From IMG/VR virus record IMGVR_UViG_3300031566_003932: DNA of 64,000 nucleotides, one strand, 5' to 3'. The position numbers and the translations under genes were made by a program. The DNA comes from a virus. Below, piece after piece: positions 18,965 to 56,175 of this stretch (position 1 is the first letter of the stretch; each line of letters begins with the position of its first letter). The notes beneath the pieces were generated by a model, which saw only the letters and a list, made by a program, of their open reading frames with translations, was not told the DNA's origin and searched no databases.

Positions 18965-18973
18965 CCCCGTATC

Positions 18974-36701: not shown

Positions 36702-39620
36702 CTAAAAGTATTTCTCCTGATAAATGTTTGTCTTGGCATCGATGAGTTTCGCTGTCAAAACCTTGATGTCTTCCTTATTCATAAACGTGCCGTCAAAGAT
36801 ATTCTCTACAATCCGGCCCTGATGCTCAAGGGAGGCCATGATACTCGAATTGACCCGGCCCCTTCCTGCCTCATCCAGATTCGGGGCAAGATTAGAGGCC
36901 AGATCCAGATAAGAAAACCTGATCCCCTGCCCGTTATTCAGAATCTTCACGGCCTCGCTGTAATACTGCATTCCGTCAATGCACATCCTGAGCTCATCCT
37001 TTACCAGTAGGTCGCGCCAGAGTTTCACGGCTTCTTGAGCGTATTGTTTGAGTTGTTCAGTGAATTGCCCGCCGTTGCCTTCCAGGGTGTATTTGATATG
37101 ATGGATAAGGTCACGCATCCAGAGAAAGCAACCGAGCCGCCGTTCTGGGTACTTCACCCGGTCCGCTTGCATAAGTGGCCAGTTGCGCTGAAACCGTGCC
37201 CGCCTGATCAGCTCCGTTGCATACCCCGTGTGCATAATAGCGATGTCATCCAGCACACAAATCTTGCTGATACCGCTATTCATTTTCTCTTCCGGATGCT
37301 CGTGAACCATGCCAAAGAACCGGATTCCCTTGTGATTGCGAAATATCCGGGCCGGGAGGTCCGTCTTGAACAGAGCTGCCGGTTCCGTTGCGTAATGATG
37401 CTGTCTGACCGAATATCCGTTATAACAATTCTGTCTCAAATGCTGTGGCAGGTTCCGGGCGTTTTCAAGAGTTTCGTCGCTATCAATCCATAAGATCCAA
37501 TCCATGACCGCTTTTTCGATTGTCCGGTTGCGGGCCTCGTCAAAACCTTGTTCAAGAGGCGACTTGATCTTGAAAGTCTGTGCTCCGAATTTCTTGGCCA
37601 CACGTTCGGTCTCATCGGTCGTGGTCTCATCAATGCCGATAATAATCTCATCGGCAATAGATTGAATCGTTTGCAGGGTCTTCCCGAGCGTATATTCAAC
37701 ATCCTTGGCAATCATACAGACTGAGAGTGTTTCCCGTGGTGCCTGGCTTATGAGTTTTCGCTTATAATTGATCTCGCCCGTGGGAAGACCCGAGCTCTGA
37801 AAGGTCAATAGCCAGTGACCGACATAGCCCTTAAAGGTGTAAAGGCTGGGTATGGCGATCAGCTTATAATCTCGCTGATTGCCCCATATCTCAAAAATGT
37901 CCTGCCGCTCGAAGTGGTGAATATGCGAACGCCATCCTTTTTCCTCTTCATATCCGAGAGCCTCCCATGCACCGGAGGGAACAGTAATAAGCATGTGACC
38001 GTTTGGCTCAAGATGCTGCATAAGCAAATCCGAAATCTCGGCCACATTTGGTATGTGTTCAAAAAGTTCTGAGGCAAGAATCATGTCGTATTTGCCTAAT
38101 TCCTGGTGCATTTCCTCAAGTTTTCCGCAAATGAATTTCACCCGACCTTGAGTATTGGCCTGTTTCTCCCAGGCGCGAGCCTTGTCAATATTCGACTGCA
38201 TGAAATCAAGGCCGGTGAATCTGGCTTCAGGCATCCTGCCGGCGAGATTCATCGTATAATGACCGTGAGCGCATCCGAAGTCGAGTACGTTTTTCGGCTT
38301 CAATTCCTGTATTTTCTGAAACATCTGCATAAATCGGCCATTACGTCCAAGATCCTCCGGGCCATAATGCACACCCTTTTTCTCTTCGTGGGCGTAATAC
38401 CGTGTGTAGTGGTCTTCATACTCACCGGAGAAATAGAAATAATAATTCTTTTTGAGATCGGGCCGGGTCTTTTCCGCTCCGTCCTTAACTGCCGCCACAA
38501 TATCGCTTTGCTCTTCAAGGTGCTTGTGTAAGCGATAGGTGTTTGCACTCCGTTCCCTGAGCATGTCTTCAAACTGCTTTTCCCATTCTGCCGCGATATC
38601 GGGCCACGCCTGCCGCTTTGCTTTGGCCTTTTTGTGTAGCCCTATCCATTTATGCAGGGCCGTTCTCACAGTCTTTGCAAAGAGCTTCTTATCGACCCCG
38701 CCGTCTTTGTCTAGATCAAGCAGGATCGCGCCCGCTTCATTCATCGTTTCCGGGAGGGCCGCCGTCTTGAAGGCAATAAACGGGGTCCCGCAGGCGTTAG
38801 CCTCAAGTGCTACCATGCAACTCGTATCTTCAAAGGTCGTGGGGTAGACATAAAGCATACACCGGGCCATGAGTTCGGCAAGTTGCCGTTTCCCGAGAGG
38901 CCCCACGTTTGTCACGTTCTTTCGGTCATCACAGCATTTCCAGAGATATTCATAATACTGCCTTAGCTGCGGGACTGTGTTATCATACCCGCAGACGTAT
39001 AAGTGACAATTAGGGAGCTCATCCATAATGCCTTTGTCGCCCACGAGATTTTCAAGACCCCGCTCCGGGCGCGAGGCATAGATGAGGGAATTCGGCTCAC
39101 GGTCGAAAAGTTCAAGTCCTTCATATTCCTGATAATCGATGCCGTTCTTTGTGGCCGTGATATATTCTTTTGGGATTCCATAAACATCCGAGACCTGCCG
39201 CTTGTGGAATTCCGAAACCGTGAAGACCTGATCAACATACATGAGTTGCGCTTGCACCATCATGCCATGGCGATGCAAAGCCAGATCATGCAACCACCAC
39301 ACATTGAGCTTACTGTTAATGATTTGCGTGAATGAATGCCAGTGACGCTGTGCAATCACTACATCATAGGGTGCTCTCATGACGTAATGGAAGCGATCAC
39401 CAAGAGGCATATTTTCTCTTGGAGTGCCTAAAAACTCGTAGGTCACGCCATCCCATTTGCCGCATTGCTGCTCATTTGTAAAAACGATTACACTATGGCC
39501 GCGCTTTACGAGTTCGCGGGCCATGTAATACCCGGCGCTTTCCGATCCTCCGAGACTTTTACCGTCTGGAATGGTTGCGCCGTTAAATGGCATGCCGGGA
39601 ATTGCCATTGCGATGTGCAT
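36702..39620 (-). CDS. Tri-domain GT4 + SAM methyltransferase + GT2 fusion
   Basis: GT-B: GGSESA, YASRPERGL, FEDTSCMVALEA; MTase: VLDFGCAHG, SELFEHI; GT-A: SVCMIAKD, WIDSDE, VHE, HTGY. Confidence 0.88.
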   Translation of the reverse strand: MHIAMAIPGMPFNGATIPDGKSLGGSESAGYYMARELVKRGHSVIVFTNEQQCGKWDGVTYEFLGTPRENMPLGDRFHYVMRAPYDVVIAQRHWHSFTQIINSKLNVWWLHDLALHRHGMMVQAQLMYVDQVFTVSEFHKRQVSDVYGIPKEYITATKNGIDYQEYEGLELFDREPNSLIYASRPERGLENLVGDKGIMDELPNCHLYVCGYDNTVPQLRQYYEYLWKCCDDRKNVTNVGPLGKRQLAELMARCMLYVYPTTFEDTSCMVALEANACGTPFIAFKTAALPETMNEAGAILLDLDKDGGVDKKLFAKTVRTALHKWIGLHKKAKAKRQAWPDIAAEWEKQFEDMLRERSANTYRLHKHLEEQSDIVAAVKDGAEKTRPDLKKNYYFYFSGEYEDHYTRYYAHEEKKGVHYGPEDLGRNGRFMQMFQKIQELKPKNVLDFGCAHGHYTMNLAGRMPEARFTGLDFMQSNIDKARAWEKQANTQGRVKFICGKLEEMHQELGKYDMILASELFEHIPNVAEISDLLMQHLEPNGHMLITVPSGAWEALGYEEEKGWRSHIHHFERQDIFEIWGNQRDYKLIAIPSLYTFKGYVGHWLLTFQSSGLPTGEINYKRKLISQAPRETLSVCMIAKDVEYTLGKTLQTIQSIADEIIIGIDETTTDETERVAKKFGAQTFKIKSPLEQGFDEARNRTIEKAVMDWILWIDSDETLENARNLPQHLRQNCYNGYSVRQHHYATEPAALFKTDLPARIFRNHKGIRFFGMVHEHPEEKMNSGISKICVLDDIAIMHTGYATELIRRARFQRNWPLMQADRVKYPERRLGCFLWMRDLIHHIKYTLEGNGGQFTEQLKQYAQEAVKLWRDLLVKDELRMCIDGMQYYSEAVKILNNGQGIRFSYLDLASNLAPNLDEAGRGRVNSSIMASLEHQGRIVENIFDGTFMNKEDIKVLTAKLIDAKTNIYQEKYF

Positions 39621-39963: not shown

Positions 39964-40944
39964 TTACACACTGGTTACATGAGTCATGAGAAAGGCGAGA
40001 TTCTTGGCCGTAATCTTCTCATCCTGGTAGTAACCAAGCTCGATTTCCTCGCTCTTGGTCTTCGGGTCAAACGGATGCCGTTCTGCGATCATGTTCGGCA
40101 AGCCCGGTTTGGTCCATCTGAAGGAGTACATAAAACTAGGTTCCTCAATGCTCGGGCTGGCCGGTGCATAATAAAACAAGACATGATCACCCCAGAGCGG
40201 GCTTAATGATGCGGTTTGACCTTCCTGCGTGGTGCTGTAGTAGGCCCTTCCGACATGGAACGCATCAAGCTCGAAAATTCGCTTGAACTGCTCCACACTG
40301 GCATATCTGACACCCACTTCACCAGGTGCCCCGGCATAACCGTATATGATTGAGATCACGTCGGCATGCTGCCTGAAATTCCGCCATGCCAGCTCGCTCA
40401 TAATGCAGCGGTTTGGCCTGTATCCTGTTGAATCCTGGACGTTAGCGACTGCCTGCCAGCAATCGGCCAACGGAGTGCTATAACCGGTTCTGTGCTCTAT
40501 CCAGTCAGACGTGATAGTGGCATAAGAGCCACAATTGCTTCCACTGGTGCACCTTAGAGCTACCCGTTGCTCCCAGGACAACATGAGTTTGCTTTTGATG
40601 AATTTTGTCCGGCCTTCCCGCATGTTACCGATGAAAACCGGGTCCATATTTTCGCGATCCTCAAGATTCAAGGGCATTTTGAGAGCGTAATTCTTCGCGT
40701 TATAGCTTTCAGATGAGACACTTCGCTCGATCTTGTTCGCTTCATCTCCTGGTGCCCTCTTGTCATCCTCAATCCTGAAAGCGTCCGCATGACTCCAAAT
40801 GATGTAAGTATCGCTTTGTTTTCCCACCGAAACGATGGGGGCAATAACATCGGCAATCATGCCTTTAGGTTCGTAATTGATCGCCACATTCGACAAATGC
40901 TGATCAATATGCAGGTCGTGACCTGTTGCTCCTCCTCCTGCCAT
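39964..40944 (-). CDS. Major capsid protein
   Basis: 326 aa after decoration genes; HIDQHLSNVAINY, IAPIVSVGKQSDTY. Confidence 0.85.
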   Translation of the reverse strand: MAGGGATGHDLHIDQHLSNVAINYEPKGMIADVIAPIVSVGKQSDTYIIWSHADAFRIEDDKRAPGDEANKIERSVSSESYNAKNYALKMPLNLEDRENMDPVFIGNMREGRTKFIKSKLMLSWEQRVALRCTSGSNCGSYATITSDWIEHRTGYSTPLADCWQAVANVQDSTGYRPNRCIMSELAWRNFRQHADVISIIYGYAGAPGEVGVRYASVEQFKRIFELDAFHVGRAYYSTTQEGQTASLSPLWGDHVLFYYAPASPSIEEPSFMYSFRWTKPGLPNMIAERHPFDPKTKSEEIELGYYQDEKITAKNLAFLMTHVTSV

Positions 40945-42104: not shown

Positions 42105-43607
42105 TTACAGGTCTTCGTAAGCATATCGTTTGGCAAGATCCGCATCGCCTTCAAGCACGGCCTTGGAAGCCTCGGCGTAGTTCACGTCCTTATGATCGGC
42201 CATGTACTTCTTGGTCTTGGCCGTGAGTTCCTCGCCTACGGTCTTGTATTCCTTCTGCTCATCGCCAGTGCCTTCCTTGCCCTTTTCGGTGATATCAAAC
42301 ACCTTGGCATGAGTTTCAAAGCACTTCTTGAAGGCATCGAAGGTGATCGAGAAACCATGATCATCCGTATAAACGTGCTTCTCCAAGTCGTTGACCAGGA
42401 TATCGCGGGCCGCGGGTGTCATCTTGCCGTCTTTGACCATCTGCTCGCAGAACGTCTTGATTTCATCCGTCCGGGCCGTTTTCAGACCATCGGCTTTCTC
42501 TTTCTTCAAAGCCTCGGCCTCGGCCTTGTAGGTCTTGCTCTCGCCTTCCGATTTTGTTAAATCGGCTTTTGCCGCATTCAGCTCATCAGTGAGCTGCTTA
42601 ATCTTTTCATCAGACATTTCTTCAACCTCCTCGTCTGTTTTAATTTCCCCGCTTTCATTGACTTCAAAGCTATAACTGGCCATTTTCTCAAACGTCCCGA
42701 CTTCGGGAGTCATGGACAGATAGGCTTCCAGGTCTGCAAGATTACTGACGGCGGGGATATCTGCGCCTAGTAAACCGACGGCGGAAAGTACCCGTTTGAA
42801 TACCTTGCCGCTCTCTTTCAAATTCCAGTAAATCTCGGCGCTCACCCTCTTGTAACGTCCAGAGGTGATCGCCTTATAAAGTACGTCAGGCACCTGAGTC
42901 ACAGTGGCGATAAGTTTTTCACCGACTTTCTTGAGGCCCTTCACCCAGCCAAGGGCGGGCTGGCCATCTTCCAGGTGCATTTTATTGTCATGTGCAAGTT
43001 TCAGGGGCGGTTTGATTTTCTCCTGCAGCTCATAGAAAGCATGAACCATTTCGTTCAAGTCGCCCTCGGTGTATGCGTCTCCGTTCCAGATTCCGGTGCT
43101 GAAAACCTCGACATCGAACTCGTGGGTCTTTTCCTCAGTGGCATGGCTCCTGTTCCCTGCCTGCGTTTTCCTGTCTACCCACTGGCAATTTTTGGGTTCA
43201 TAATTGCCATCGTTATTTGTCCGGTCGATTGTGTAACCGTCCGGTCGCGGCCCCATATCTTTCATAAAATCGTCAAAACTATCCTGCCAGCGTTGGCATA
43301 CGGAAACCCCGCGGCCTCCGTATCTTGCATAATCCTTGTCATTGCTATTGACACAGCGTGACTTCATGGAAGTCCAGACCGAATAGTCTTGCTCTCTCGA
43401 CATGGCCGCCGTTTTGCTCCATTTACCCTCTGCGTCCTTGGTCCATCCCGCGTTTTTCACGGCTCCCCAGCCGATCTTCGCCGCCATCTCGTCATCTCCG
43501 GGGGTCTTGCCTAGAGAACTATTCGCAGCATTGCGCCAGATTTCTTGTGCGCTCGCGGGAAGCACTTTCACTCCATCGGGCAAACTTTCTAATGTTGGGT
43601 ACGGCAT
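42105..43607 (-). CDS. Head maturation protease/scaffold (Mu gpI-like) with N-terminal ChaB-like domain and in-frame HNH domain
   Basis: AAKIGWGAVK ChaB; YGGRGVSVCQRW...IDRTNNDGNYEPKNC HNH; LKLAHD, PALGW, YKRVSAE, LLGADIPAV protease; helical scaffold tail. Confidence 0.85.
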   Translation of the reverse strand: MPYPTLESLPDGVKVLPASAQEIWRNAANSSLGKTPGDDEMAAKIGWGAVKNAGWTKDAEGKWSKTAAMSREQDYSVWTSMKSRCVNSNDKDYARYGGRGVSVCQRWQDSFDDFMKDMGPRPDGYTIDRTNNDGNYEPKNCQWVDRKTQAGNRSHATEEKTHEFDVEVFSTGIWNGDAYTEGDLNEMVHAFYELQEKIKPPLKLAHDNKMHLEDGQPALGWVKGLKKVGEKLIATVTQVPDVLYKAITSGRYKRVSAEIYWNLKESGKVFKRVLSAVGLLGADIPAVSNLADLEAYLSMTPEVGTFEKMASYSFEVNESGEIKTDEEVEEMSDEKIKQLTDELNAAKADLTKSEGESKTYKAEAEALKKEKADGLKTARTDEIKTFCEQMVKDGKMTPAARDILVNDLEKHVYTDDHGFSITFDAFKKCFETHAKVFDITEKGKEGTGDEQKEYKTVGEELTAKTKKYMADHKDVNYAEASKAVLEGDADLAKRYAYEDL

Positions 43608-43631: not shown

Positions 43632-43674
43632 AAAAAAGGGAGCAATCTAGTGGTTCTGGCACCAGACTGCCCCC
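43632..43674 (-). terminator. Intrinsic terminator-like hairpin before the protease gene
   Basis: GGGGGCAGTCTGGTG / CACTAGATTGCTCCC (15 bp with G-U pairs) then T6. Confidence 0.6.
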
Positions 43675-43734
43675 TAAAATGTTCTGCTCTAAGATTCGCG
43701 GGTCCTAGAGTGGCCTTACTTTATTTAACGTGAA

Positions 43735-44445
43735 TCATCCATTTATCACCTTGATTATCTGCATATTCTCAGGCACTATTTGATGACATTTATGGCAAAG
43801 TTCATAAGGCTCAAGTCTGAATTTCGTAATATCATCAAAGATATTCCCGAGCATGCCTTTCTTTGCTGCATCCAAGCAGCACGTAGTTATGTCACCATTG
43901 CTATAAACCATGACCTGGCCTCTCTCAAGCCAGGGGCAGGCGTATTTGACAGGACTTTCAAACCAATCGACTTGACCGGCCCAATTATTTGGGAGTGTCA
44001 CCGGGTCAATTGTAAGTCGCCCAGCGATACCGAGCTTTCGAAATATCTCAATCGTTCTTGCCGTTACGCGAGGGTCGCCATGATAGGTGATATCGATTGC
44101 GGTAATTCCTGCATTCTGCAAGTTCCGGGCAAGTTCCTCAGTCATCAACTTTCCATTAGTGTTTGCGTGTATGATCTGCCGTATAGGTAGCTTATTACGA
44201 GCATGCTTGACCATCTCTGCAAGATCGGGGTTTAACGTAGGCTCACCTATGCCAAATAGGTTTAACTCGCGCTGTGTGCCCTGTTTGCAGAAGTGGGCCA
44301 CCCATTCGATAGCCTTCTCAAAGACCTTCATGCTCATCAAGCCCACTTCCCGGAACTTCTTTTGAAAAGGAGCCGGGCAGTAGGGGCATGTATTGTTACA
44401 GAGGCTTGAAACCTCGATGCTATTTATGGTTGTTATCGGCTGCAT
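43735..44445 (-). CDS. Radical SAM protein with twitch/SPASM-type domain (paralog 2)
   Basis: CNNTCPYC, GIGE, TNG, NWAGQ, C..CC..CxxC. Confidence 0.9.
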   Translation of the reverse strand: MQPITTINSIEVSSLCNNTCPYCPAPFQKKFREVGLMSMKVFEKAIEWVAHFCKQGTQRELNLFGIGEPTLNPDLAEMVKHARNKLPIRQIIHANTNGKLMTEELARNLQNAGITAIDITYHGDPRVTARTIEIFRKLGIAGRLTIDPVTLPNNWAGQVDWFESPVKYACPWLERGQVMVYSNGDITTCCLDAAKKGMLGNIFDDITKFRLEPYELCHKCHQIVPENMQIIKVING

Positions 44446-45076
44446 ATCTAACCAATTTCTCCCTCAATGGATGTGTCAATCTGTCCTCCGGTATCACGAC
44501 TAAAATCGGGCCTGTAAGCAAAAGCTCATCAGGTGCCACAAAAACTAAATCATCCGTATATTTTTCAAAAACCTTGAGCCATTGTTCTGGGGTCTTCATG
44601 TTGATATGTGAGGGATCGGTCCCTTTGTCCAGGCATAGCGTGTGCGCCTGTATACGTCCGACTCGAAAGCATTCATTCAACACATCGTCAAGTATCGATT
44701 CATCGATGTGCTCAAGCAATGCCGAGGAGAACACCAGGTCGAATTCTTTATCCTTGTAGGGCATGTTCTGAACGCTGCCCTGCCTGAGATTAGGCAATCC
44801 ACTATGAAAGACTGCTATCTGGCTTATCTCGATTCCATGGACATTTTTAAAACCCCTGCTTTCCCATACCCTCATGGCATGGCCCACGCCCGAGCCAAGG
44901 TCTAAGATCTTGGCCGAAAGAGGAAGGCCGGTATACATCAGAATGCGGTTGATATAATACGCCTTGGCTTCGTTGGCCCATTCGGGCATGGGACTATTGA
45001 TATACTGGTGCCGATACCAGCCCTTGAGATATTCCTGATCATACCAGGACCCGTCTATGAATTTTTGATTATCCAT
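44420..45076 (-). CDS. Class I methyltransferase (copy 2)
   Basis: Same as 50-706. Confidence 0.85.
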   Translation of the reverse strand: MDNQKFIDGSWYDQEYLKGWYRHQYINSPMPEWANEAKAYYINRILMYTGLPLSAKILDLGSGVGHAMRVWESRGFKNVHGIEISQIAVFHSGLPNLRQGSVQNMPYKDKEFDLVFSSALLEHIDESILDDVLNECFRVGRIQAHTLCLDKGTDPSHINMKTPEQWLKVFEKYTDDLVFVAPDELLLTGPILVVIPEDRLTHPLREKLVRYAADNNHK

Positions 45077-45830
45077 TAGCTGCCTTAAATATCTTCCACC
45101 CGGTGAAATTCCTATTATATCCCTGCATTCCGCCCTCTGTTTCACCCCGGAAAGTAAAATCGAATCCGCAGTCTTTGAGAAAAGATTTCAGGATTACATT
45201 TGCCGTGTTTTGATCCGGATATCCGTATTGAGCAAATTGATCATCACTAAAAAAGCCGGGTGCGGGCGCGTGTGTCTCCAGGTCCATAAACTTGACCCGC
45301 GTTAACGAATCTTTCAGGCTATCCCTCGGGCTGAAAATCTCGTATTCGCCACCCTCGATATCTACCTTGAGAACGTCAATAGTATCGAACAAAGATAGAA
45401 GATGCTCAAAGCCTATGGTCTGGGTAAAGCCTGCATTGATATGCTCATTAGGATCAAAGAAAGTTCCGTATTGCCCGTGGTTGCTCCGGGAACTTGACCA
45501 GAATATGTTACGAGCCTCACCCGTTTTCAATGCCGCGGCCGCCCACATGGGCGTAATGACATGGCCAAAATGATTATTATATGTGTTCTTTACCAAAGTT
45601 CTGAAATTCTCAAAGAAGGCCTCGATTGCCAGGATTCGGTTAAAGCCCTTTTCTGCTGCAAAATATAAGGTACTGCAACCGATATGAGCGCCTATTTCAA
45701 GCATAGTATCATGGGAACCGTTGAAATCTTCCATGTATCTCACACCCTCATCCAGAATCCACTGGTCGCAGTCTTGCAGTTCCATCGTGACATCACGGCT
45801 TTTGATGTGCGGGTGTGCTATGTTAAGCAT
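45069..45830 (-). CDS. FkbM-family methyltransferase (copy 2)
   Basis: Same as 699-1460. Confidence 0.85.
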   Translation of the reverse strand: MLNIAHPHIKSRDVTMELQDCDQWILDEGVRYMEDFNGSHDTMLEIGAHIGCSTLYFAAEKGFNRILAIEAFFENFRTLVKNTYNNHFGHVITPMWAAAALKTGEARNIFWSSSRSNHGQYGTFFDPNEHINAGFTQTIGFEHLLSLFDTIDVLKVDIEGGEYEIFSPRDSLKDSLTRVKFMDLETHAPAPGFFSDDQFAQYGYPDQNTANVILKSFLKDCGFDFTFRGETEGGMQGYNRNFTGWKIFKAANG

Positions 45831-46587
45831 ACATCCTCACGAGGTCCTGGTCAGTAGGTTGATTCTCCATTTCAAACTGCGCCATAAGATCGGCGGATAT
45901 CTCTTGATGACAAGTCCGACAAAGAGCATAAGGCCGGATAGGGCGACTAAGGATATCCCCATCAAACACATTGCCAAAAACGCCGAGATTACGATAGTCA
46001 AAGCAGCAAGGCGTAATATTACCCTCAGTGAGTACATATCCTCTCCCCTCTATAAGTGGGTCGCATCGACCCTTGAGCATGCAGTCAACCTGATTCTCAG
46101 GCTCAAGCTGCCCTGCCCAATTGTGCGTATAGATAATAGGGCCATTATTGAGCACCCCCGGAATTCCGACCTTTAGCATGATCTGAGCTGCCTTACGCGC
46201 ATGGGCGGGCGAATGCGGGGAAAGGTCAAGCTGATCCATGCCCGCATCCTTGAGGCCCTTGCAGACCTCATAAGTCATATTTACGCCGTTAGTACACATG
46301 CAGACGCGCCGATCGCCCATGATTTCCTTGGTGCGCTTCACCCGTTTAACGAGTTGTGGATCGAGAAACGCTTCGCCATCCCCGTTCATATTGACTTCCA
46401 TCTGTGTGCCACGGTTGCAAAGCTCCTGTAAAAGCTCAAGGGTCTTGTCAAATACCCGGTCTGACATGATGCCGGGTTTCCTTGCAGGGTCTTTCACGAG
46501 CAGGCGGTTAATGCAATATTGACATTGCAAATTGCAAATGTTAGAAAGCTCAATAGTCGTTATGGTCTTGAGGGTAATCATCCCCAC
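45823..46587 (-). CDS. Radical SAM paralog 1 (copy 2)
   Basis: Same as 1453-2217. Confidence 0.9.
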   Translation of the reverse strand: MGMITLKTITTIELSNICNLQCQYCINRLLVKDPARKPGIMSDRVFDKTLELLQELCNRGTQMEVNMNGDGEAFLDPQLVKRVKRTKEIMGDRRVCMCTNGVNMTYEVCKGLKDAGMDQLDLSPHSPAHARKAAQIMLKVGIPGVLNNGPIIYTHNWAGQLEPENQVDCMLKGRCDPLIEGRGYVLTEGNITPCCFDYRNLGVFGNVFDGDILSRPIRPYALCRTCHQEISADLMAQFEMENQPTDQDLVRMYA

Positions 46588-47201
46588 CTCATAAGGCCCT
46601 TATCGTCTAAAATTTCATCGTTCAACAGATTGATGAAATGATGACAATCTGTGCAGTAAACATGATATATGCTTTGCACCCGTAAATATTTTTTGCCATA
46701 CATATTTTCAGGATATCCAGCCGTAACCCAATTTTTATGCTCACATTTTTCCATAAAGGAGACCTCCCATGGGACACCTAATATTTTGCATCTTGCATAT
46801 TATAGCGATTTTATTCGGTTTCATCCTGCTGTTCATAACCGTTCCACTTCATATCATTTACGCTTGCGTACACAGAAAAAGAAAGTTAGCTTAAATATCG
46901 CTAGTAAGCCAATCATCGAGAAAAGGCTTCAATCCCTTTTGTATATCCAGATATAGACTTAAAGCGGAATTCCGTTCTATTTCTAATTTATTCGGATCTG
47001 ATGCAACTTTTTTAGCAAAAATCAAAGCTCGAAATTCTCCATTATCCTTTGTATCAAATTCAAACTGTCTTGTGCATTTATGGCAAAGTCGAGCAGGGTA
47101 AACGTCAAAAAGCATTCTATCTATTGCGTCCTCTGCCCCGCATTTCTCACAAGAAATGAAAACGCCATATTTCTTAGTGATCGAAATATTGATAAAGGCC
47201 A

Positions 47202-49424
47202 TCACGCAAACCCCTTCTGAGGCTCAAGCCTCGGTTTTGCGCTCTCCTTGCCATTCCATTCATCAACTATCGTGACCGGTATCAGGAGTGCGCGGCATTG
47301 AAAGTGATTCGGAGGCGTGTAACTGCCCCAGTCCTTCAAGATCCGCCCGTTGAGATGTTCGCAAATATCCGATGTCCGCTCATCCAATACCGCACTGTAT
47401 TCATAGGCCAGCACAAAGCCTCTAAATTCCGGTTGCCCGAAAAGCGCCTGCCGTGCCTGGTTAAGCGCGTCAGACGTATTTGTTCGGGCAATATTCTCTA
47501 ACCTGGCCGGGACGTTAATCGCCTTACCCCCCGCATCGACTTCCGGCAGCATCTGCAAGAGCGTTGTTTCCTCGCCTATGGCCTTGATGGTCTGAGGTAA
47601 GGTCTTGTCGTACTTGACGGCATTCTCAAGCACATTTTGAACGCCTTTCAAGGTATCTTGCTCCATCACGCCGGCAATCGTGAAAGCCTTGGATGCAAGA
47701 AATTTCTCAACCTGCGTCTTATCCATGCCGGGGCGAATGGTCTTGGCCTGCACCTTCTTAGGCAATTCACGGCGGGCGAATTCATAACCATTCTCAAGCA
47801 CGGTAGTCAGATTCTTTCGTATATTGCGCCTGAGATTGCCCATGATTGCCTTGCTTATTCCGATTCCGAGTAGTTCCTTGAGCTTTACATTACCGAGAGA
47901 CCGCTGACCCACGATATTGATAATCTGCTTTTCTATGGATATCCGGACCTCTGCCATGCTCTGCTTGAGGTCGTCAACAAACTTGCCGTCTTGATCATCC
48001 AGGGTGCCTTTGATCGCGGTGAAATCTACTCGTTTGAGCCATGGCTTTTCGGCAAATTCCTTTCTGATAAGATCCTGCTTTTCCTTGGGTTGCGCGGAGA
48101 TCCAGTTTTCTATTTCCTCATCTGAGGGTGGTTCCTCACCGGGCAGGCCCTCTACAGGTATTTCCTCCTCTGGTTCCTCTTCCTCTGCCTTCTCAGGAAA
48201 TCCCATACTCTGCCTGATATGGGCCTCGTCAGTATCGCTCTTTGTTACTGCCCCTTTGCTGACGAGTTCAGCCCATTGTTTCGCTATCTCCGCTTTCTGC
48301 GTGTCGGAGATAGGCTCAAATCGAAACCAGGGGAAATCCTCTGTGCCAAAATTCCATATCGCAAGTTGTCTGAAAAGCTGCTCGTTCAAGGTTTCTTCAA
48401 GGCGCGTGGCGATGATATCCAGAATCCAGAAGAAAGATTCGAGTTGTGTCTGTGATTGGCTGTAACTGCCGGTCTTTCCTTCTTCCGATAATCCCAGGAG
48501 ATTCGGGACTAGGATTGATCGCCCGATAGCACGGTTATGCAGCCCTATGGCCTTTTCAAAGGCATCGGTTCTGACAGGTTGGAAAAGATTGAGTTTTATA
48601 TGATCAGGTACATGGGCAGCCATCTTTACTGAAATATTATTGATGAGATCTTCAAGATGTTCCTTGTCTCCTGGTTGCAATGATCCGTGTTGCGCCCAAA
48701 TAAACCCGCTGGCATGCCGCTCAAGGAAGATATTGTAAAACCGGATCGTAATATCTTTCGACCACCAGGAGCGATAGCAGGCCCTCAGATCTGATTCGCC
48801 GTATATGCGATTGACGTCCGGTTGATGTACAAAATGAATGATCTTGGTAAGGGGTATCTCATTCCGGGCCCCCCCCACAACTTGGCTGATTTTCTCGATA
48901 TTGCCATGCTCATCGAGTTGAAAGCCGCCGTTGAAAGTTTCGGCCGGCCTGAGCTTGAGATCCTTCAAGCCCCAGTATGTCTTGCTGTCATAGGTGATTG
49001 GTTGAAAGACTTTCTCGATTACAGAATAACCATTTTGGAAGGCAGAAAGTATCTCGATCAACTTGTCCGAGAAGCTGCCCCGGATCTGTTTGATTGCAAA
49101 GCCGAAGAAATCGGCCATCTCTTCATGCTCTTTGCGGGGCTCCCCATTATCATCCGTTTCAATATCGAAGTACCAGTCACGGCTTAGGACAGCATTCATT
49201 TTGAATTGCAGGGTGGGCTTGATCTGATCGTCTTTGACCATATTGCTGTAGATCTCATTCCCCTTGGTGATCTTGAGCGTATCGGGATCATAGTCATGAA
49301 ACGTACCGAGGCCATAAAGACTGGTTCTCGCTATACCAATTTCACCGGCTTTGGGGGTGCCTGCTTCTTTCTCAAGAAGATCGGGTTTCTTGAATGCTTG
49401 TAATGCTGCGCTAAGTCTGCTCAT
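47202..49424 (-). CDS. Portal-MuF fusion (copy 2)
   Basis: Same as 2832-5054. Confidence 0.85.
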   Translation of the reverse strand: MSRLSAALQAFKKPDLLEKEAGTPKAGEIGIARTSLYGLGTFHDYDPDTLKITKGNEIYSNMVKDDQIKPTLQFKMNAVLSRDWYFDIETDDNGEPRKEHEEMADFFGFAIKQIRGSFSDKLIEILSAFQNGYSVIEKVFQPITYDSKTYWGLKDLKLRPAETFNGGFQLDEHGNIEKISQVVGGARNEIPLTKIIHFVHQPDVNRIYGESDLRACYRSWWSKDITIRFYNIFLERHASGFIWAQHGSLQPGDKEHLEDLINNISVKMAAHVPDHIKLNLFQPVRTDAFEKAIGLHNRAIGRSILVPNLLGLSEEGKTGSYSQSQTQLESFFWILDIIATRLEETLNEQLFRQLAIWNFGTEDFPWFRFEPISDTQKAEIAKQWAELVSKGAVTKSDTDEAHIRQSMGFPEKAEEEEPEEEIPVEGLPGEEPPSDEEIENWISAQPKEKQDLIRKEFAEKPWLKRVDFTAIKGTLDDQDGKFVDDLKQSMAEVRISIEKQIINIVGQRSLGNVKLKELLGIGISKAIMGNLRRNIRKNLTTVLENGYEFARRELPKKVQAKTIRPGMDKTQVEKFLASKAFTIAGVMEQDTLKGVQNVLENAVKYDKTLPQTIKAIGEETTLLQMLPEVDAGGKAINVPARLENIARTNTSDALNQARQALFGQPEFRGFVLAYEYSAVLDERTSDICEHLNGRILKDWGSYTPPNHFQCRALLIPVTIVDEWNGKESAKPRLEPQKGFA

Positions 49425-50915
49425 TTACCAATCCGCTCCGCTTGCTACAGTTTGGCCTACGCCGAAACCGCTTTCCCATTGAATGCCGACTTTCTCCCTG
49501 AGATACTTTAAGGCCATGCTCACCATATCGGCCTGATCCTTAGTTGCGGTATTCGGGAAATTCTGTAATTCAAGCTCAAACTCTGTCAACCAAGGGGCCT
49601 CTTCAGGCAAGAATACCATACCCGCTTCTATGGCCGGAGTTTCTGTGGCTAGGCGTGTGATCTTGTCGGATTCAGGTTCAAAGGCTATCAAGGGCAGGCC
49701 CTGGACTTCCTGCAAAAGAGAAGATCCCGTTGACTTATCCTCGATTACTATGGCATTCGGCTGCTGGCCAAAGAGGGTTTGACATTTATTCACTTGCGTT
49801 GTTAGAGCCCGCTTCCCTGCCGGATAGTTAAGCCATTCCCGGAATACATCGACAAGATAGTATTGCGTATAGGTTATAAGCCATGTACCACATACCCATG
49901 GCGAATTAGTGAGCTCATCGGCCTTTTGCGCGGTATCCCAGACCTGTAAAAACATGACCCATTGATCTTTGGAAGGTAAAATTTGATACTGCTTGAACCA
50001 TCGCATTTCCACGATTGACCCCTCGAGAGGCGCCGGCCGTTGCTGTAACTGGCAGGCTACGCCATAACTGCCAAGGAAGCGCTGGGCCTCGTCATAAAAG
50101 GTTTCTCCAAAACGATCTCCCCAGTAAAACTCACCCTCTTCCTTCCGGGGATCTTCGGGCATTGCATCCTGCAGCTCGTATTTGAACGGTATCCGCACAT
50201 GCACCCAATCACCGTTTCCCTTCTTAATCACATGACCGGTTAAATCGTCTTGATGTACCCGTTGCTGGATTATGATAATGGCCGAATTATTAGGATCATT
50301 CAGGCGTGTGCTCAAGGAATTGTCAAAACTATCAAGGGCCGCCATGCGATCGGCTTCGGAGTACATGGCCTTTTTTGCATCGTGAGGGTCATCAATAATC
50401 ATAATATCCGCGCCCTCGCCTGAGACTCCGCCAGACATGCCGAAGATAATTCGAGTACCGGTACCATTTATCTCATAGCGCCGTTTTTGATTCTGGTCTG
50501 AGGTAAAGACAATCTCAGATCCCCATCTGACTTGAAACCATCGGCTTTGTACTAACCGGCGCATCTTGACCGCATCCCTAACAGCGAGCTCTTCCTTGTG
50601 CGAGCCGGTAAGGAATTTCTTGGAAGGGTCATTGAGCCAGACCCAGGCCGGGAACATGACAGAGCAAAGGGTTGACTTCATAGAACGGTACGGGACGTTG
50701 ATCACAAGCCGGGTAATCTCACCCCTATACACCCGCTCTAAGTAATCGCAGATAAGCTCGATATGCCAGTTGTGTTGATATTCCACGCCGGGCTCAATTA
50801 TCGGCCAAGATTCCCGGACAAAACTGAGAAAATCCCGCCTGCACAGTTCGGAATCAACTATTTCCTGCTGTAGCAGCCTTAGTGGCAATGTCTTTAAGAA
50901 TTCGGAGTTCATCAA
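49425..50915 (-). CDS. terL: Terminase large subunit (copy 2)
   Basis: Same as 5055-6545. Confidence 0.93.
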   Translation of the reverse strand: MMNSEFLKTLPLRLLQQEIVDSELCRRDFLSFVRESWPIIEPGVEYQHNWHIELICDYLERVYRGEITRLVINVPYRSMKSTLCSVMFPAWVWLNDPSKKFLTGSHKEELAVRDAVKMRRLVQSRWFQVRWGSEIVFTSDQNQKRRYEINGTGTRIIFGMSGGVSGEGADIMIIDDPHDAKKAMYSEADRMAALDSFDNSLSTRLNDPNNSAIIIIQQRVHQDDLTGHVIKKGNGDWVHVRIPFKYELQDAMPEDPRKEEGEFYWGDRFGETFYDEAQRFLGSYGVACQLQQRPAPLEGSIVEMRWFKQYQILPSKDQWVMFLQVWDTAQKADELTNSPWVCGTWLITYTQYYLVDVFREWLNYPAGKRALTTQVNKCQTLFGQQPNAIVIEDKSTGSSLLQEVQGLPLIAFEPESDKITRLATETPAIEAGMVFLPEEAPWLTEFELELQNFPNTATKDQADMVSMALKYLREKVGIQWESGFGVGQTVASGADW

Positions 50916-51456
50916 TGCTCAAATCTTTCAAGATTGGTTTCAAGTCAATCGGTATCGGCCCGCCATCGGGTCCGGAGGCCTCGACTGCCTTAATGTCTTT
51001 CCAGCGATCTCTACGCCGGTTCTTGAGCCAGAAGATTCCAGCGGTAGTTTCCGAAGGTATGTGCTTTGAAACTTTTTTGGTTATTACATACTTGATTTTC
51101 TCTTTTTCCGTTTTCGGGTCAATTTGCGGGTTTTCTTCCTTGACAGCTCGCCGTGTAACTTCAGTGTAGTTATAGCCTTTGGCTCTCTTTTTCAGCGACT
51201 TCTCAATATCTCCCGTATCAAATTCATCCTTCCCCTCTTGAACCGCCTTCCCGAATTCGGGGTATTCCCTGCGCCATCGGACCAGACTATCCCTCGAAAT
51301 ATCTATGAGCTCACAGAACTTCACATCGGTAAAGCCCTCAGAAAAGGCAATCCGGGCTTGCCGGATATACTCTTCTTTGAATTCGCGGGGTCTGCCTGCC
51401 TTATTGTTTTTCTGCTTGGGCGGCATATAATCCATCTCTGAAACTAGACAACACAA
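50854..51456 (-). CDS. terS: Terminase small subunit (copy 2)
   Basis: Same as 6484-7086. Confidence 0.85.
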   Translation of the reverse strand: MCCLVSEMDYMPPKQKNNKAGRPREFKEEYIRQARIAFSEGFTDVKFCELIDISRDSLVRWRREYPEFGKAVQEGKDEFDTGDIEKSLKKRAKGYNYTEVTRRAVKEENPQIDPKTEKEKIKYVITKKVSKHIPSETTAGIFWLKNRRRDRWKDIKAVEASGPDGGPIPIDLKPILKDLSIDELRILKDIATKAATAGNS

Positions 51457-52120
51457 TCTTTACCATTTCAAGATATTCCGCTTTTAGAAATGGCAAAGTA
51501 GGCGGTTGCAATTCTGGGAATTCCAGGAGACGAATGAGTTTGTTGAGCTGCATTTCGATAAAAGGCTTGTCAACCATGACGTTAAATCCCTCAGCAAGTG
51601 CCTTCTCGTAATTAACTGTAGAATCACCCGCCTTAAAAGCAAGTATCTTGTCAAGCCATCCATTCCAATCAGGAATCTTGGCCGGGTTGTTCTGGCCTAT
51701 CAGATAACCCGCTGTCGCTGCGCTCATGTCCGCTGCTACTTCTATGGTATTGGACCCGGTTGCGCACGCGCTCAAGAAGAGTATCGCTAGGCTTAGTATC
51801 ATAAGGTTTCTTTTCATTCTCCAATGCCTTATCTATAAGTTTGATTGCCGCGTATTCGGCTATTTTCCAAAAAAGACCGACCATTATTCCCTCGGTTGGT
51901 CTTTGCTGAAAATTAAGAGGAGGGCATAGAAAGCAGCCGCTAGGGTTGCTAACTTCTCGGGATCAATCTGAAAACCCCAATAGCCTACCACAACCACAAT
52001 CGCCGGTATGACAGCGGCAATACTGGTTTTCCAGTTTTTGATAATTCGGTCTAACATTTTAAATCTCCTCTTGTTTAAGGTTATTCGATCCTATCCACCA
52101 AGCCCCGGGCCTTGATGTAA

Positions 52121-52981
52121 TCATTCGCCTCCGTTTTTATTCTTTTTCTTTGCCTCTATTTCCGATTCCCTCAACTCTAAGCACTTGCTCTCTGTCAACT
52201 TTGAATCGAAAAGAAAATCATAATGCTCAGTTTCCAACCATTCATAAATCCGACTTATGGGAATAAACAAACCCATGTGAGTAATGACTGTGCCCCAACC
52301 GACAACAGGGACTAAAGAGGGAATGCCGATGAATTCTCCCTGTGCGTTAAACATGGCACCCCCTGAATTCCCATAAATAATCTGGCTTGAACTCATGTGG
52401 TAAGGGAGGGATTCAATCTGGAAATTCTTGCGAGTAATTACTCCCACGGTAGGTAAAGGGGGAAACCCCAAAGAACAGCCAACAGCGATGCTTTCATCCA
52501 TAACAAGTACACTGTCTGTATCCTCTTTGTTGGGAAGTATTGCACGATGAATAACTGACTCCTCGGTTCTTAACTTCAAAAGGGCCAAATCGTTGTCTTT
52601 GCTGTAAAGAACAATATCGGCCTCAACCTTCAGGGTGCCAATAGGAGTGCTAATGTCACGATATTTGAAGATTTCAACATAAACAATTGCCCGTTTCTCG
52701 CGTTTAACATTTTTCTGTACATCAGTATCCCATTCATCTGTAATGCTGATAGCACCTTCAATCACATGATGATTAGTAAGTACATAAGTTGAATAGCCCA
52801 TCTTGCCTGTTTGAAGATACGAATAAACCACAGTGCCGGAACCTCCGACATTACCCTCCGTTACCCTCACGACAGGGTAGATGAATTTCTCGTGGGCCTG
52901 GATGGCCGTTAGCGCAAATGCTGAAACTGCAAATACGAGAATCACCCCCAGGACCAGAAATGCGGAAATGATTCGTTTCAT
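52121..52981 (-). CDS. Secreted trypsin-like protease (copy 2)
   Basis: Same as 7751-8611. Confidence 0.88.
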   Translation of the reverse strand: MKRIISAFLVLGVILVFAVSAFALTAIQAHEKFIYPVVRVTEGNVGGSGTVVYSYLQTGKMGYSTYVLTNHHVIEGAISITDEWDTDVQKNVKREKRAIVYVEIFKYRDISTPIGTLKVEADIVLYSKDNDLALLKLRTEESVIHRAILPNKEDTDSVLVMDESIAVGCSLGFPPLPTVGVITRKNFQIESLPYHMSSSQIIYGNSGGAMFNAQGEFIGIPSLVPVVGWGTVITHMGLFIPISRIYEWLETEHYDFLFDSKLTESKCLELRESEIEAKKKNKNGGE

Positions 52982-52989
52982 GTTAATCT

Positions 52990-53400
52990 CCTTGGTTAAG
53001 GGTTGTGGGGCGTGACAGGGTATCCCCTGCGTATTAGGCCCGTTCGCGAGCTACACGCCCCGTAAAATGGGCTACAATGGGCTGGGTTCCACCGACTTGC
53101 GTGTGCCCAATCATCCGCAAGCTCGTTTACCATTGGGTAAACTCATCATTGTAGTCCATATCTGGTTCAGAACTCAGGCTTCCACCCCTATTAAGGCCAC
53201 CTACCACCAGAATCAAATATATGAGGCGTTATCTCTGGGCTTTCGCTTGCACTCCGTTCGATCCTTCGTCCGGGCTCCCCAAAATGGCCCGCGCCGCCTG
53301 ATTCGATTAGCGGGTTGAGCAACCATAAGATTGACTCGCGCTGCCGTCCGGCTCCAATCAGTCCGTTGCCCAGTCTCACCCCAACTCGAAAACATGGGGG
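52990..53400 (-). ncRNA. Candidate structured ncRNA (copy 2)
   Basis: Same as 8620-9030. Confidence 0.5.
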
Positions 53401-53403
53401 GAA

Positions 53404-53694
53404 TTATTCTCCAAAACTGTAATGGTTTCCGTCATCCCAGCGACCACCCCATGTACCACCAAGACTTTCCCAAAATTTACCTAATGGAAGATGATCCCCG
53501 GTTGTAGTCAAGTAGGTTCCATCCTTGAACAGGTTGAGGTCTATGGCGAGGCGCTGGTAGTGAAAACTCTTATTTTTATGGCCTGTGATTGCATAAGCAT
53601 CGCCAAAGGTCACTTCATAGCCCTGCTCATAAGCAAACAGAAGCAGGAGGGCGATCATATGAGCAAATTTTGATTGTTTCTGGCGTAGGGTCAC
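53404..53694 (-). CDS. M15 endolysin (copy 2)
   Basis: Same as 9034-9324. Confidence 0.85.
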   Translation of the reverse strand: MTLRQKQSKFAHMIALLLLFAYEQGYEVTFGDAYAITGHKNKSFHYQRLAIDLNLFKDGTYLTTTGDHLPLGKFWESLGGTWGGRWDDGNHYSFGE

Positions 53695-54615
53695 TTCTGT
53701 TCCTCCCGTTCTTGCTTTAAGAGCTCGTAAATGGGCTTCTTTTGCTCTTCGACTTCAGTAAGCATGGTCTGGACTTCCTTGAGTAAGTCTTGCGCCCTCA
53801 CCTTGGCATTGTAGGGCATGAGGTTGGCCTGAATGATGCCGGATGTATCACGGATGCGCTTGTTGATCCTGCTATTTAGGGCATCAATGGCTGTGAGTTT
53901 ATCGGAGATGATTTGACATTGCTCTAAATTCATATCAACCTCTCTGAGGGTGGGGCCGAGGCCCTGGAAAAAGGAGGGAAACCATGAGCCTCGGCTTGGG
54001 TGGTTTGTAAGGGAGTCACCATGCAGAGATAGGGTAAAACGGGGAAAGGGGAATGTCAAACGGGTGGAGGGTGTCGTTTGTATGTCGTTTATATGCCTTT
54101 TGTAGGTCTTTCTAGGTACTTTTGTAGTGTAAACGGGTACACGGCGATAATAGGCTTATAGGCGTCTATCAGAGGCACGTGAGCTTTGCGTAATAGACGC
54201 CTGGCCGTGCGTTCGTTGACCTTAAGGTAGCTGGCTATTTCCTTAAGGGTTACGAGTGGTTTTTCTTGGGTCATTCCCCTTCCATAACCATAGTTACCAA
54301 AGCCGCCGAATCGAGCATGTAATCAATCGCCCGTTTTGCCCGTTCCGCTTCCTTGGTCTTGATGTCGATCACAATCTGCTTTGACTTGAGCTCGCGGTTG
54401 AGAATTTCCATTTCTTTTCGAAGGGTGATCACCATAGTTTCGAATTGAGCGCGAGTCATATTTTGGAATGGCTCAACCGTTGTGGCTTCGTAGTAGTCAA
54501 AGCGCTCGGCTTCATATGGAGGCTCAGGCCAAGCCCAATCTGAAGTCGTCCTAAAGTTTTCTGCTATATTATCGCTGCCCATTTCTTTCCCCTCATTTTT
54601 TATGGTGTACGAAAA

Positions 54616-55359: not shown

Positions 55360-55574
55360 CCCTCCCGTTTCTCCCTCGGCCTCAAAATCTCCCGAAACTC
55401 ATTATACAAAGTCATCTTAAACCCCCTCTTCCCCTCACACTCTGGGTCCTGACACACATAATAGAAATACTCCCCTTTGTAATGTGATGGCCTCATAGGG
55501 TGGAGGTTGCACACCGGGCACCAGTAATCAGGTTTAATTTGTGCCGGTGATTGCATTATTCATGCACCTCGCCC

Positions 55575-56175
55575 TTACCTATTTGCCTCAAAAAACGCTT
55601 CTGCAAAGCCGGGCGGAGTAATAGAGCGCAAAACAGATCGGTTTTTTGATGGTGGCAATCTGTGTACCCAGTCATGCGGCAAATACTCAGGATGATCAAC
55701 AATACCCAACTTACCGGATGACGTACCTCCAGTCCATAAACCTACGGGCAATACTGGTTTCTCTTTTGGTTTAATGTGTTCTCCCCAGATACAAGTACGT
55801 TTTGTCCAAGGATCGCCATATTGATATGGTTGAAAAATATATTTCCACTTGCCAATATATCGTCTTAGTGTGCCGACAGGATTTTCTAAAGCCCACCATT
55901 GAGGTTTCGCAACAAATATAATTCTCATGCAAGCATCCACCACCGATAACCCCTCTCTCATTTCATCATCAGTTCTTTTCCATCGAACACCGGATATCGC
56001 AAAGACGGTACAGGGGGGGGGCAGCAAGGATGCCGTATACATTTTCTGGTGGTTTATAAAGGCGCACATCATGCTCGGGTAGTGTGATATTCAGAACATT
56101 ATATCCAGCCTCTTTGTAGGGTCTACTCCATGCCCCCGTGCCCCCACATAGATCAAGGATCATTCTTTTAATCAT
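55575..56175 (-). pseudogene. Frameshifted C5 methyltransferase (copy 2)
   Basis: Same C9 tract as 11205-11805. Confidence 0.8.

Follow-up and report, generated by a model that had tools for sequence, protein, structure and literature searches.

What do two small radical S-adenosylmethionine (SAM) enzymes contribute to the head operon of a phage? This question is raised by a 64,000-nucleotide stretch of viral DNA (IMG/VR record IMGVR_UViG_3300031566_003932; hereafter the window), in which a block of four genes lies between those for a portal protein and a head-maturation protease. Two of these genes code for paralogous radical SAM (rSAM) enzymes, rSAM-A and rSAM-B, and two code for methyltransferases. 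When the window was first inspected as sequence alone, it was predicted that the rSAM pair brackets the two methyltransferases, carries out sugar dehydrogenase or epimerase chemistry like that of BtrN, and may act in sequence or as a heterodimer.

We compared this block with 160+ metagenomic loci by mapping the window proteins onto each fetched locus (designated below by L numbers). The conserved partner of the rSAM genes is not the portal/protease junction, but rather an enzyme of about 970 amino acids (aa) encoded next to the capsid gene, 4 kb downstream, in which a glycosyltransferase of the GT4 type, a methyltransferase (MT) and a GT2 glycosyltransferase are fused. We lean modestly toward the view that the rSAMs are accessory enzymes of a phage protein-glycan system, in which they would catalyze epimerization or dehydrogenation by radical chemistry, and this glycosylation system most likely decorates a virion protein.

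Integrity and structural class of the radical SAM pair

rSAM-A and rSAM-B are identical at 84 of 234 aligned positions (36%, E 1e-47), and their alignment shares every motif on which their paralogy had been proposed: CxxxCxxC, GTQxE, GxGE, TNG, NWAGQ, ITxCCxD, GNxFD and PYxLCxxCHQ. Both belong to the radical SAM superfamily as judged by the Pfam Radical_SAM profile (PF04055), which scores them at 54.4 and 51.3 bits (cut-off, 29.5). Each protein is composed of an abridged SAM-radical core, carrying the CxxxCxxC [4Fe-4S] site, and a C-terminal twitch domain with four invariant cysteines, which, judging from the alignments and AF2 models, should coordinate a single auxiliary [4Fe-4S] cluster. These models are confident (predicted local distance difference test values of 94.8 for rSAM-B and 88.2 for rSAM-A) and place a hairpin (E177-180/E185-187) between the first two auxiliary cysteines. 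All four reading frames are present where they had been placed, and they do overlap at their starts and stops. rSAM-A shares 8 nucleotides (nt) with the FkbM-family methyltransferase gene, which in turn shares 8 nt (from an ATG start) or 77 nt (from a GTG start) with the class I methyltransferase gene, and the latter overlaps rSAM-B by 26 nt. Orthologs of rSAM-A start at the position equivalent to ATG 46581, corresponding to a protein of 252 aa.

Neither paralog shows signs of decay. Among 119 distinct members of the family, the seven cluster cysteines of rSAM-B (C16, C20, C23, C170, C189, C217 and C220) are invariant, as are W155, H122, N97, E68 and G67, and D192 is present in 118. C190, which comes second in the CC pair, is retained by 113 homologs; the remaining six, all from one subclade, have Ser or Ala there. 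The family divides into three clades, of which clade B (n=44) includes the window rSAM-B, clade A (n=34) has a long stem, and clade C (n=41) comprises two subclades. Clade-A orthologs (n=22, 48-84% identity) keep every motif, including all seven cluster cysteines as well as GNGES, TNG and HNWAGQ. Residues that distinguish the clades include PNNWAGQVDW, HxNTNG and D147 in rSAM-B and its relatives, and SHNWAGQLEP, xxCTNG and G147 in those of rSAM-A. These residues are in the loop that aligns with the Arg152 loop of BtrN, and they fit a model in which the two paralogs may act on different substrates or positions.

The structural class of both enzymes is best described by BtrN, the 2-deoxy-scyllo-inosamine (DOIA) dehydrogenase of the butirosin pathway (PDB 4M7T/4M7S, 250 aa). 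BtrN is the best solved match in phmmer searches with rSAM-B (4.5e-8) and rSAM-A (1.1e-4, residues 8-209), and a family profile built from 55 sequences matches it at 1.9e-14 over residues 6-208. BtrN is also the top structural match in the PDB and among Swiss-Prot models. For rSAM-B, Foldseek gives E 8e-14 and a template-modeling (TM) score of 0.69, with the next entry at E 2e-7. VIA comparison with BtrN gives Z 21.4 and a root-mean-square deviation (rmsd) of 3.0 over 218 of 246 residues for rSAM-B, and Z 18.9 and rmsd 2.9 over 213 of 246 residues for rSAM-A. The entries that come after BtrN (ChlB, anSME, SuiB and CteB) have Z scores of 14-17 and exceed it in length by more than 100 residues; the runners-up, at Z 17.2 for rSAM-B and 15.3 for rSAM-A, are 120+ residues longer.

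The phage enzymes resemble BtrN in size, in their abridged core and in their single-cluster twitch domain. In the profile alignment, C170 and C189 of rSAM-B fall opposite C169 and C187 of BtrN, and C217 and C220 most likely correspond to the last two ligands of BtrN, which lie past the printed alignment. The BtrN residues aligned with the phage C...C(C)...CxxC cysteines are presumably the four ligands of its auxiliary cluster. BtrN is a sugar dehydrogenase whose CxxxCxxC motif occupies C16/C20/C23, the identical residue numbers in the phage proteins, and its auxiliary cluster has four Cys ligands (PMC9012708; Cys4 ligation also in PMC10337720). Unlike BtrN, which has Phe at this position, the phage family carries an extra and nearly invariant Cys after the second auxiliary ligand. 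Furthermore, the phage genes are paired and are tied to a protein-type glycosyltransferase, with no aminoglycoside pathway nearby.

Other small twitch enzymes of aminoglycoside pathways, the epimerases and dehydrogenases HygY, NeoN and SpeY, likewise abstract hydrogen from a sugar carbon. SpeY appears in our fold lists at Z 13.5, well under BtrN. According to work cited in PMC10991966, NeoN uses Cys249 as its hydrogen donor, and the HygY epimerase turns into a dehydrogenase upon loss of one Cys. If, as these citations suggest, a single Cys sets epimerization versus oxidation in HygY and NeoN, then the phage candidate for such a residue is C190. The substrates of these enzymes are free antibiotic intermediates, whereas the phage substrate is presumably a protein-linked glycan.

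The original prediction also held that the phage enzymes fit a BtrN-like twitch class better than the long SPASM maturases that act on RiPPs (ribosomally synthesized, post-translationally modified peptides), and the comparisons by sequence and fold support this assignment. SPASM RiPP maturases and anSME (CteB, SuiB, PqqE, ChlB and anSMEcpe; Z 15-17) do share the radical SAM core and the hairpin of the first auxiliary cluster. However, they exceed the phage enzymes by 100-200 residues, contain two auxiliary clusters and mostly combine a peptide-recognition domain with an adjacent precursor gene. The SPASM profile matches rSAM-B exactly at its cut-off, over residues 170-210 only. Matches of both rSAMs to NCBIfam are limited to the N-terminal core and are all far under the cut-offs, so neither protein reaches or groups with any curated family, whether housekeeping or RiPP. 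The name 'AslB' attached to rSAM homologs in JGI records is generic.

We rejected a role as RiPP maturases for three reasons. First, the motif for a second auxiliary cluster is absent, leaving just four auxiliary cysteines and C190. Second, a CxxxCxxC motif that begins at residue 16 leaves no space for an N-terminal peptide-recognition domain. Third, no small open reading frame (ORF) beside the rSAM genes is common to loci beyond close relatives. For a 58-aa ORF at 46578-46754, no related locus has a homolog at the corresponding site (an unrelated 43-aa ORF takes its place in close relatives), and thus it is not a conserved precursor peptide. This ORF has a CxH...CxxCHH pattern, is preceded by GGGAGG, and its TGA overlaps the ATG of rSAM-A (ATGA); several relatives bear other small Cys-rich ORFs upstream of rSAM-A, and the small ORFs at this site have no relationship to one another across loci. 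An anSME function was also rejected, since there is only one auxiliary site and the C/S-x-P/A-x-R target motif is absent from all head proteins.

The glycosyltransferase partner and the gene neighborhoods

The linkage of rSAM genes to the GT4-MT-GT2 gene is nearly constant. Of 54 non-redundant rSAM loci with enough flanking sequence, 52 carry this gene (one or two of them scored on a partial match), and the association persists where the capsid protein is just 25-35% identical. In most loci with readable gene order, the GT gene follows the capsid gene, in some cases with a small ORF between. The best solved matches of the GT2 domain are the flagellin O-GlcNAc transferase GmaR (3.8e-15), 7msk (Glyco_trans_2-like), which we take to be ThuS, and SunS (5e-8), and this domain appears from its sequence to be of the protein- or peptide-glycosylating kind. 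The MT domain matches WbdD. Thus, we find what would be expected of a virion glycosylation system: a phage-encoded, protein-type glycosyltransferase that is genetically tied to structural genes.

The fused enzyme also occurs without its rSAM partners. GT-MT-GT relatives are present on 394 viral contigs, and among 30 well-covered GT loci, 16 lack an rSAM gene and usually have the protease gene directly after the portal gene (e.g. L092, L112, L125, L136 and L138). Because these relatives have the protease right after the portal, we consider the four-gene block of the window to be an insert at this junction. The placement of the block between the portal-MuF and protease genes had been noted originally, and both flanks are confirmed by domain matches (Table 1). 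rSAM-less loci are scattered among rSAM-bearing ones in the leaf order of the GT tree. For example, L092 is located among loci with both rSAM-A and rSAM-B, and its GT is 54% identical to that of the window.

Two side observations concern the GT enzyme itself. In a 57-kb phage contig (L166:8001-10954), translational coupling links a distant rSAM family member to a 741-aa GT2-methyltransferase-GT2 protein, which is a second fusion architecture. In addition, a family of ~170-183 aa with no Pfam match recurs beside the GT-MT-GT gene (L069, L071, L073, L076, L077, L081, L083, L160 and L161; e.g. L160:12960-13499) and could be another component of the system. It is located between the GT-MT-GT and rSAM genes in seven loci, and upstream in two.

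The rSAM family is predominantly viral. There are 177 homologs of rSAM-B in a collection of 5.8 billion proteins, many on contigs of 36-47 kb, and 256 IMG/VR contigs encode relatives. At E ≤ 1e-30 to the family profile, we recovered ~140 clusters (50% identity), most of which are viral, and the ESM Atlas clusters closest to rSAM-B are 96-100% viral. Among 50,697 GenBank phage records, there is no full-length homolog of the rSAMs, the tri-domain GT or the 11-kb head region, and only partial, low-identity domain matches were found.

The arrangement of the three clades reveals a dependency between the paralogs. Clade B members are either the sole rSAM or second in a pair, whereas clade A members always come first in a pair, with four apparent singletons on contigs that end there. 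Clade C members are single or paired. As a result, the observed hierarchy begins with the GT enzyme alone, to which rSAM-B, then rSAM-A, and then optional extras are added. The proposal that the paralogs act in sequence or as a heterodimer is compatible with these data, and it can now be sharpened: rSAM-B can stand alone, and rSAM-A depends on it, never having been seen without rSAM-B.

The location of the rSAM genes varies among loci, while the GT partner is kept. Close relatives have the order portal-rSAM(-rSAM)-protease. In L047-L056 an rSAM gene is between the capsid and GT genes, and in L024, L063, L071-L077 and L081 the rSAM gene or genes come after the GT gene. In L045, a 90-kb phage, rSAM adjoins the GT gene inside a recombination module among gp32-like, RecA-like and SbcCD-like genes, and in L072 an rSAM gene resides beside genes for a DnaE-type polymerase, a UvrD-type helicase and a primase. 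No fused GT-MT-GT is present in L084, where a standalone GT2 and a methyltransferase are neighbors of the twitch rSAM. The portal-protease slot of this locus (L084:5013-10690) holds genes for a HemN-like rSAM, a B12-binding rSAM, the standalone GT2 and a Methyltransf_24 protein, followed by the twitch rSAM.

The genes between the paralogs are similarly variable. In close relatives, rSAM-A and rSAM-B are separated by nothing (L009), by the FkbM methyltransferase gene alone (L005), by the class I methyltransferase gene alone (L013 and L014), or by both (the window, L007 and L011, and in reverse order L015). More generally, the FkbM methyltransferase is present, absent or moved among relatives, and the class I enzyme is found in only some. 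Both methyltransferases are therefore optional tailoring inserts, and the bracketing of two methyltransferases by the rSAM pair, although true of the window, is one variant among several rather than a conserved architecture. We found no solved homolog of the FkbM methyltransferase by sequence. The class I enzyme has weak, sub-threshold NCBIfam matches to sugar-linked methylases (pseudaminic-acid-associated, 7.6e-7; MftM, 3.2e-4).

Other occupants of this slot are also of the glycan-tailoring type. A sulfotransferase of ~187 aa (Sulfotransfer_3, 1.2e-14) is encoded between rSAM-A and rSAM-B in seven loci (L019, L020, L023, L026, L099, L153 and L158; e.g. L026:5430-5993). Extra GT2 genes are also found in the slot, and one locus without rSAMs has a polysaccharide deacetylase gene there. 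Taken together, these accessory genes make up the usual glycan-tailoring toolkit. The constant linkage to GT4-MT-GT2, along with the sulfotransferase, methyltransferase and GT2 neighbors, supports the hypothesis that the rSAMs perform sugar chemistry.

A cellular relative of the rSAM enzymes (P0241) is encoded in a 6.8-Mb bacterial chromosome (L163:1-13823), within a cluster that resembles one for a glycoside natural product. This cluster includes genes for a carbamoyltransferase, a carrier protein, an adenylating AMP-ligase, two GT2 enzymes, a protein with a weak BtrH_N match and a 304-aa rSAM-SPASM protein. Separately, one 630-aa rSAM homolog (P0129) is split by a LAGLIDADG-type insert, probably an intein, and so is matched in two stretches. 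A triple rSAM-SPASM protein, P0244, has a match to CBM6 that falls under the threshold. No rSAM-glycosyltransferase fusion was found in these two fusion proteins.

A candidate mechanism and its competitors

In the mechanism we propose, the 972-aa GT4-MT-GT2 enzyme would be the core of a phage glycosylation system, with the rSAMs as accessories. A 5'-deoxyadenosyl radical would take a hydrogen atom from a sugar carbon, either in the glycan assembled by the GT enzyme on a phage protein or in a precursor of this glycan, and two outcomes can be envisioned. In the first, an electron would pass from the sugar radical to the auxiliary cluster to yield a keto sugar, as with BtrN and SpeY. In the second, hydrogen would be returned by C190 of the CC pair to yield an epimer, as with HygY and NeoN. 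By analogy with NeoN, HygY and the Cys223/Asp210 pair of EpeE (PMC13012085), C190 and D192, which reside just after an auxiliary ligand, could plausibly serve as donor and relay, and the six natural Ser or Ala variants of C190 could be dehydrogenases. rSAM-B would perform the founding step, whereas rSAM-A would be a later add-on that acts on the product of rSAM-B or in a complex with it, and the FkbM and class I methyltransferases would add optional methyl groups. We infer the sugar substrate, the exact chemistry and the presence of the glycan on the virion from the structural class and the genetic context.

Several observations weigh against this proposal. Identity to BtrN is just 23-25%, and Arg152 of BtrN, presumably a substrate-site residue, aligns to the invariant Trp155 of NWAGQ. 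For these two reasons BtrN chemistry is not simply transferable to the phage proteins. On the same grounds, we rejected the possibility that either rSAM is a BtrN ortholog (DOIA dehydrogenase), and no inosose synthase or aminotransferase is present among the phage proteins scanned. The predicted BtrN-like sugar dehydrogenase or epimerase chemistry does draw support from the structural class and the GT context. In addition, twitch and SPASM enzymes overall act on peptides more often than on sugars. C190 may not be catalytic, given its replacement by Ser or Ala in some homologs. The family members found in DNA-metabolism modules (L045 and L072) do not point to the virion. The serine-repeat protein of the window is not conserved alongside the rSAMs. 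Finally, no RNA run with sequence from the rSAM block was found.

The strongest competing explanation, which we nevertheless consider unlikely, is that the rSAMs act on a nucleotide-sugar or free-sugar donor before transfer, and that the unusual sugar is then installed by the GT4 or GT2 domain. The substrate of DesII is a TDP-sugar, and those of SpeY, HygY and NeoN are free small (pseudo)saccharides. DesII, BtrN and SpeY all appear in our fold lists, and in the GT tree the rSAM clades follow those of the GT, a pattern expected from co-adaptation of donor and transferase. Furthermore, BtrN acts on a free small (pseudo)saccharide (PMC9012708), and the cluster around the cellular relative in L163, which includes two GT2 genes, is of the small-molecule type. 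However, the existence of L092, which lacks rSAMs amid relatives that have both, suggests that the GT can use an ordinary donor. Also, the window phage has no genes for a nucleotidyltransferase, dehydratase or aminotransferase alongside its rSAMs. Donor-level and glycan-level chemistry are inseparable with these data.

A less probable alternative is that head proteins themselves are the direct substrates of the rSAMs during capsid maturation, by Cα epimerization, thioether or C-C crosslinking, or oxidation of Ser/Cys to formylglycine, and that glycosylation is separate or later. In the head operon, the rSAM genes do have the portal gene on one side and the protease gene on the other, and the structural matches next after BtrN (ChlB, anSME, SuiB, CteB and EpeE) are peptide or protein modifiers. 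The CC-x-D motif also recalls EpeE, in which Cys223 and Asp210 are next to the twitch-type cluster (PMC13012085). These similarities are offset by the clear superiority of BtrN as the sole full-length match, and by the lack of a peptide-recognition domain and of a conserved precursor ORF. Head proteins lack C/S-x-P/A-x-R, and the decoration proteins have zero or one Cys. Moreover, rSAM genes can be found away from head genes yet beside the GT gene (L045), and their neighbors code for sugar-type enzymes. In a variant that we rate a trace lower still, the pair would epimerize, oxidize or crosslink head-protein residues during capsid assembly and thereby create the site that GT4-MT-GT2 glycosylates. 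If true, radical SAM enzymes would be part of virus-particle maturation.

We regard it as even more doubtful that the GT-MT-GT and rSAM module targets a host envelope glycan, a small molecule or a nucleic acid during infection or lysogeny, rather than the virion. The rSAM pair of L045 among recombination genes and the rSAM of L072 by replication genes would be consistent with such a role, as would the temperate nature of the phage, and phage glycosyltransferases that hypermodify DNA are known (bioRxiv 10.1101/2023.12.21.572611). Arguing against this are the position of the GT gene directly after the capsid gene in the late operon of most loci with readable order, and the resemblance of the GT2 domain to protein and peptide glycosyltransferases. 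DNA glycosylation in particular was rejected except as a minor contender, since no cytosine methyltransferase, 5-methylcytosine dioxygenase or other gene of the 5-methylcytosine/5-hydroxymethylcytosine pathway was found among the early and replication proteins scanned, and the preprint on DNA glycans does not mention radical SAM enzymes.

Lastly, we find it very hard to credit that one paralog is decayed or regulatory, leaving a single active enzyme, because even clade A, whose stem is 1.37 substitutions per site long, retains the cluster cysteines and motifs in its 22 orthologs, and the rSAM-A model is confident and BtrN-like.

Phage genome, habitat and biological implications

The window represents a circular genome of ~44,370 bp read with wrap-around, in which positions 1..19630 recur as 44371..64000. 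Every ORF of 1..19630 reappears 44,370 bases on, and accordingly most of the rSAM block has a second copy at 50..2217. The genome encodes a tyrosine integrase (19317-20435) and RecT (17305-18630), indicating that the phage is temperate. The late operon, on the minus strand, begins with terminase and the portal and Mu-F fusion, followed by a 104-aa zinc-ribbon-like ORF, a 300-bp spacer and the rSAM-A gene. The FkbM methyltransferase, class I methyltransferase and rSAM-B genes come next, and a 127-bp spacer with a terminator-like hairpin separates them from the protease-scaffold gene. The operon continues with genes for two decoration-like proteins, the major capsid protein, a 92-aa ORF and the GT4-MT-GT2 enzyme (Table 1).

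Table 1. Positions in the window of the rSAM block, its flanks and its glycosyltransferase partner, with supporting matches
Feature	Position	Strand	Evidence and remarks
rSAM-A (clade-A BtrN-type twitch radical SAM)	45823..46587	-	Pfam Radical_SAM 2.2e-14; 254 aa from GTG 46587
FkbM-family SAM methyltransferase, 253 aa	45069..45830	-	Pfam Methyltransf_21 3.9e-11, TIGR01444 2.3e-12, both above cut-off
Class I SAM methyltransferase	44420..45145	-	Pfam Methyltransf_11 1.3e-13; 241 aa (GTG) or 218 aa (ATG 45076)
rSAM-B (clade-B BtrN-type twitch radical SAM), 236 aa	43735..44445	-	Pfam Radical_SAM 2e-13, SPASM 2.8e-4
58-aa Cys/His-containing ORF, gene status uncertain	46578..46754	-	Read from sequence
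Terminator-like hairpin, 16-bp stem then T run	43637..43675	-	Consensus scan, pattern match only
GT4-methyltransferase-GT2 enzyme, 972 aa, adjoins capsid gene	36702..39620	-	Pfam Glyco_transf_4/Glycos_transf_1, Methyltransf_31, Glycos_transf_2
Portal + Mu-F fusion, upstream flank of slot	47202..49424	-	Portal_Mu 2.8e-46, Phage_Mu_F 2.3e-10
ChaB / HNH-like / head-maturation protease-scaffold protein, downstream flank	42105..43607	-	ChaB 2.1e-6, phrog_976 protease 8.2e-37
Major capsid protein	39964..40944	-	phrog_1005 2.7e-56

Several other features of the genome deserve mention. The hairpin in the spacer between the rSAM-B and protease genes could be a terminator or an attenuator at the 3' edge of the inserted block. 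In the protease-scaffold protein, a ChaB domain at the N terminus is joined in frame by an HNH-endonuclease-like segment (residues ~65-155, HNH phrogs). A 731-aa protein (32652-34847, minus strand) contains many 13-aa LP[TSN]S..LNAHI.T units around a duplicated ~60-aa segment and is 23% Ser+Thr; it has homologs in closer relatives only and so is not a universal partner of the rSAMs. In the early region, a DUF5131 protein of the phage Gp37/Gp68 family (E 8.8e-87) is encoded at 20886-21722 on the plus strand, adjoining an HNH gene.

Six soil metagenome runs contain the rSAM block in near-identical form, and one groundwater run contains a small part of it. Two GTDB genomes have relatives, both on phage-like contigs binned in 'Deltaproteobacteria' metagenome-assembled genomes, and one rSAM homolog is labeled Thermodesulfobacteriota. 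These assignments give a weak hint that the host is possibly a bacterium of the deltaproteobacterial type.

To our knowledge, oxygen-independent radical editing of sugars has so far been known only from aminoglycoside antibiotic pathways. Decoration of virions by phage-encoded glycosyltransferases has a precedent in Che8-type mycobacteriophages, whose glycosyltransferases glycosylate capsid proteins (Freeman et al. 2023, as summarized in PMC11256854). One difference is that the glycosyltransferase genes of the related phage Maravista are near the right end of its genome, with no radical SAM gene mentioned among them in PMC11256854, and the GT gene of the window is in the head operon. Our literature search returned no paper that joins twitch rSAM sugar enzymes with phage virion glycosylation. 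Thus, both halves of the proposed system are known, and their combination is not described in the literature searched.

If our proposal is correct, phages of soil bacteria edit the sugars of their particles by oxygen-independent radical chemistry, and a compact family of ~235-aa enzymes, comprising ~140 mostly viral clusters, would be added to those known to catalyze such reactions. The natural one- and two-enzyme versions of the system, along with the Cys-to-Ser/Ala variants, make the question of epimerase versus dehydrogenase function directly testable. Our proposal also suggests that glycan coats on virions occur more widely, and with a richer chemistry, than the examples from mycobacteriophages show. 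Moreover, a head-operon slot with interchangeable methyl-, sulfo- and glycosyltransferases resembles a serotype locus.

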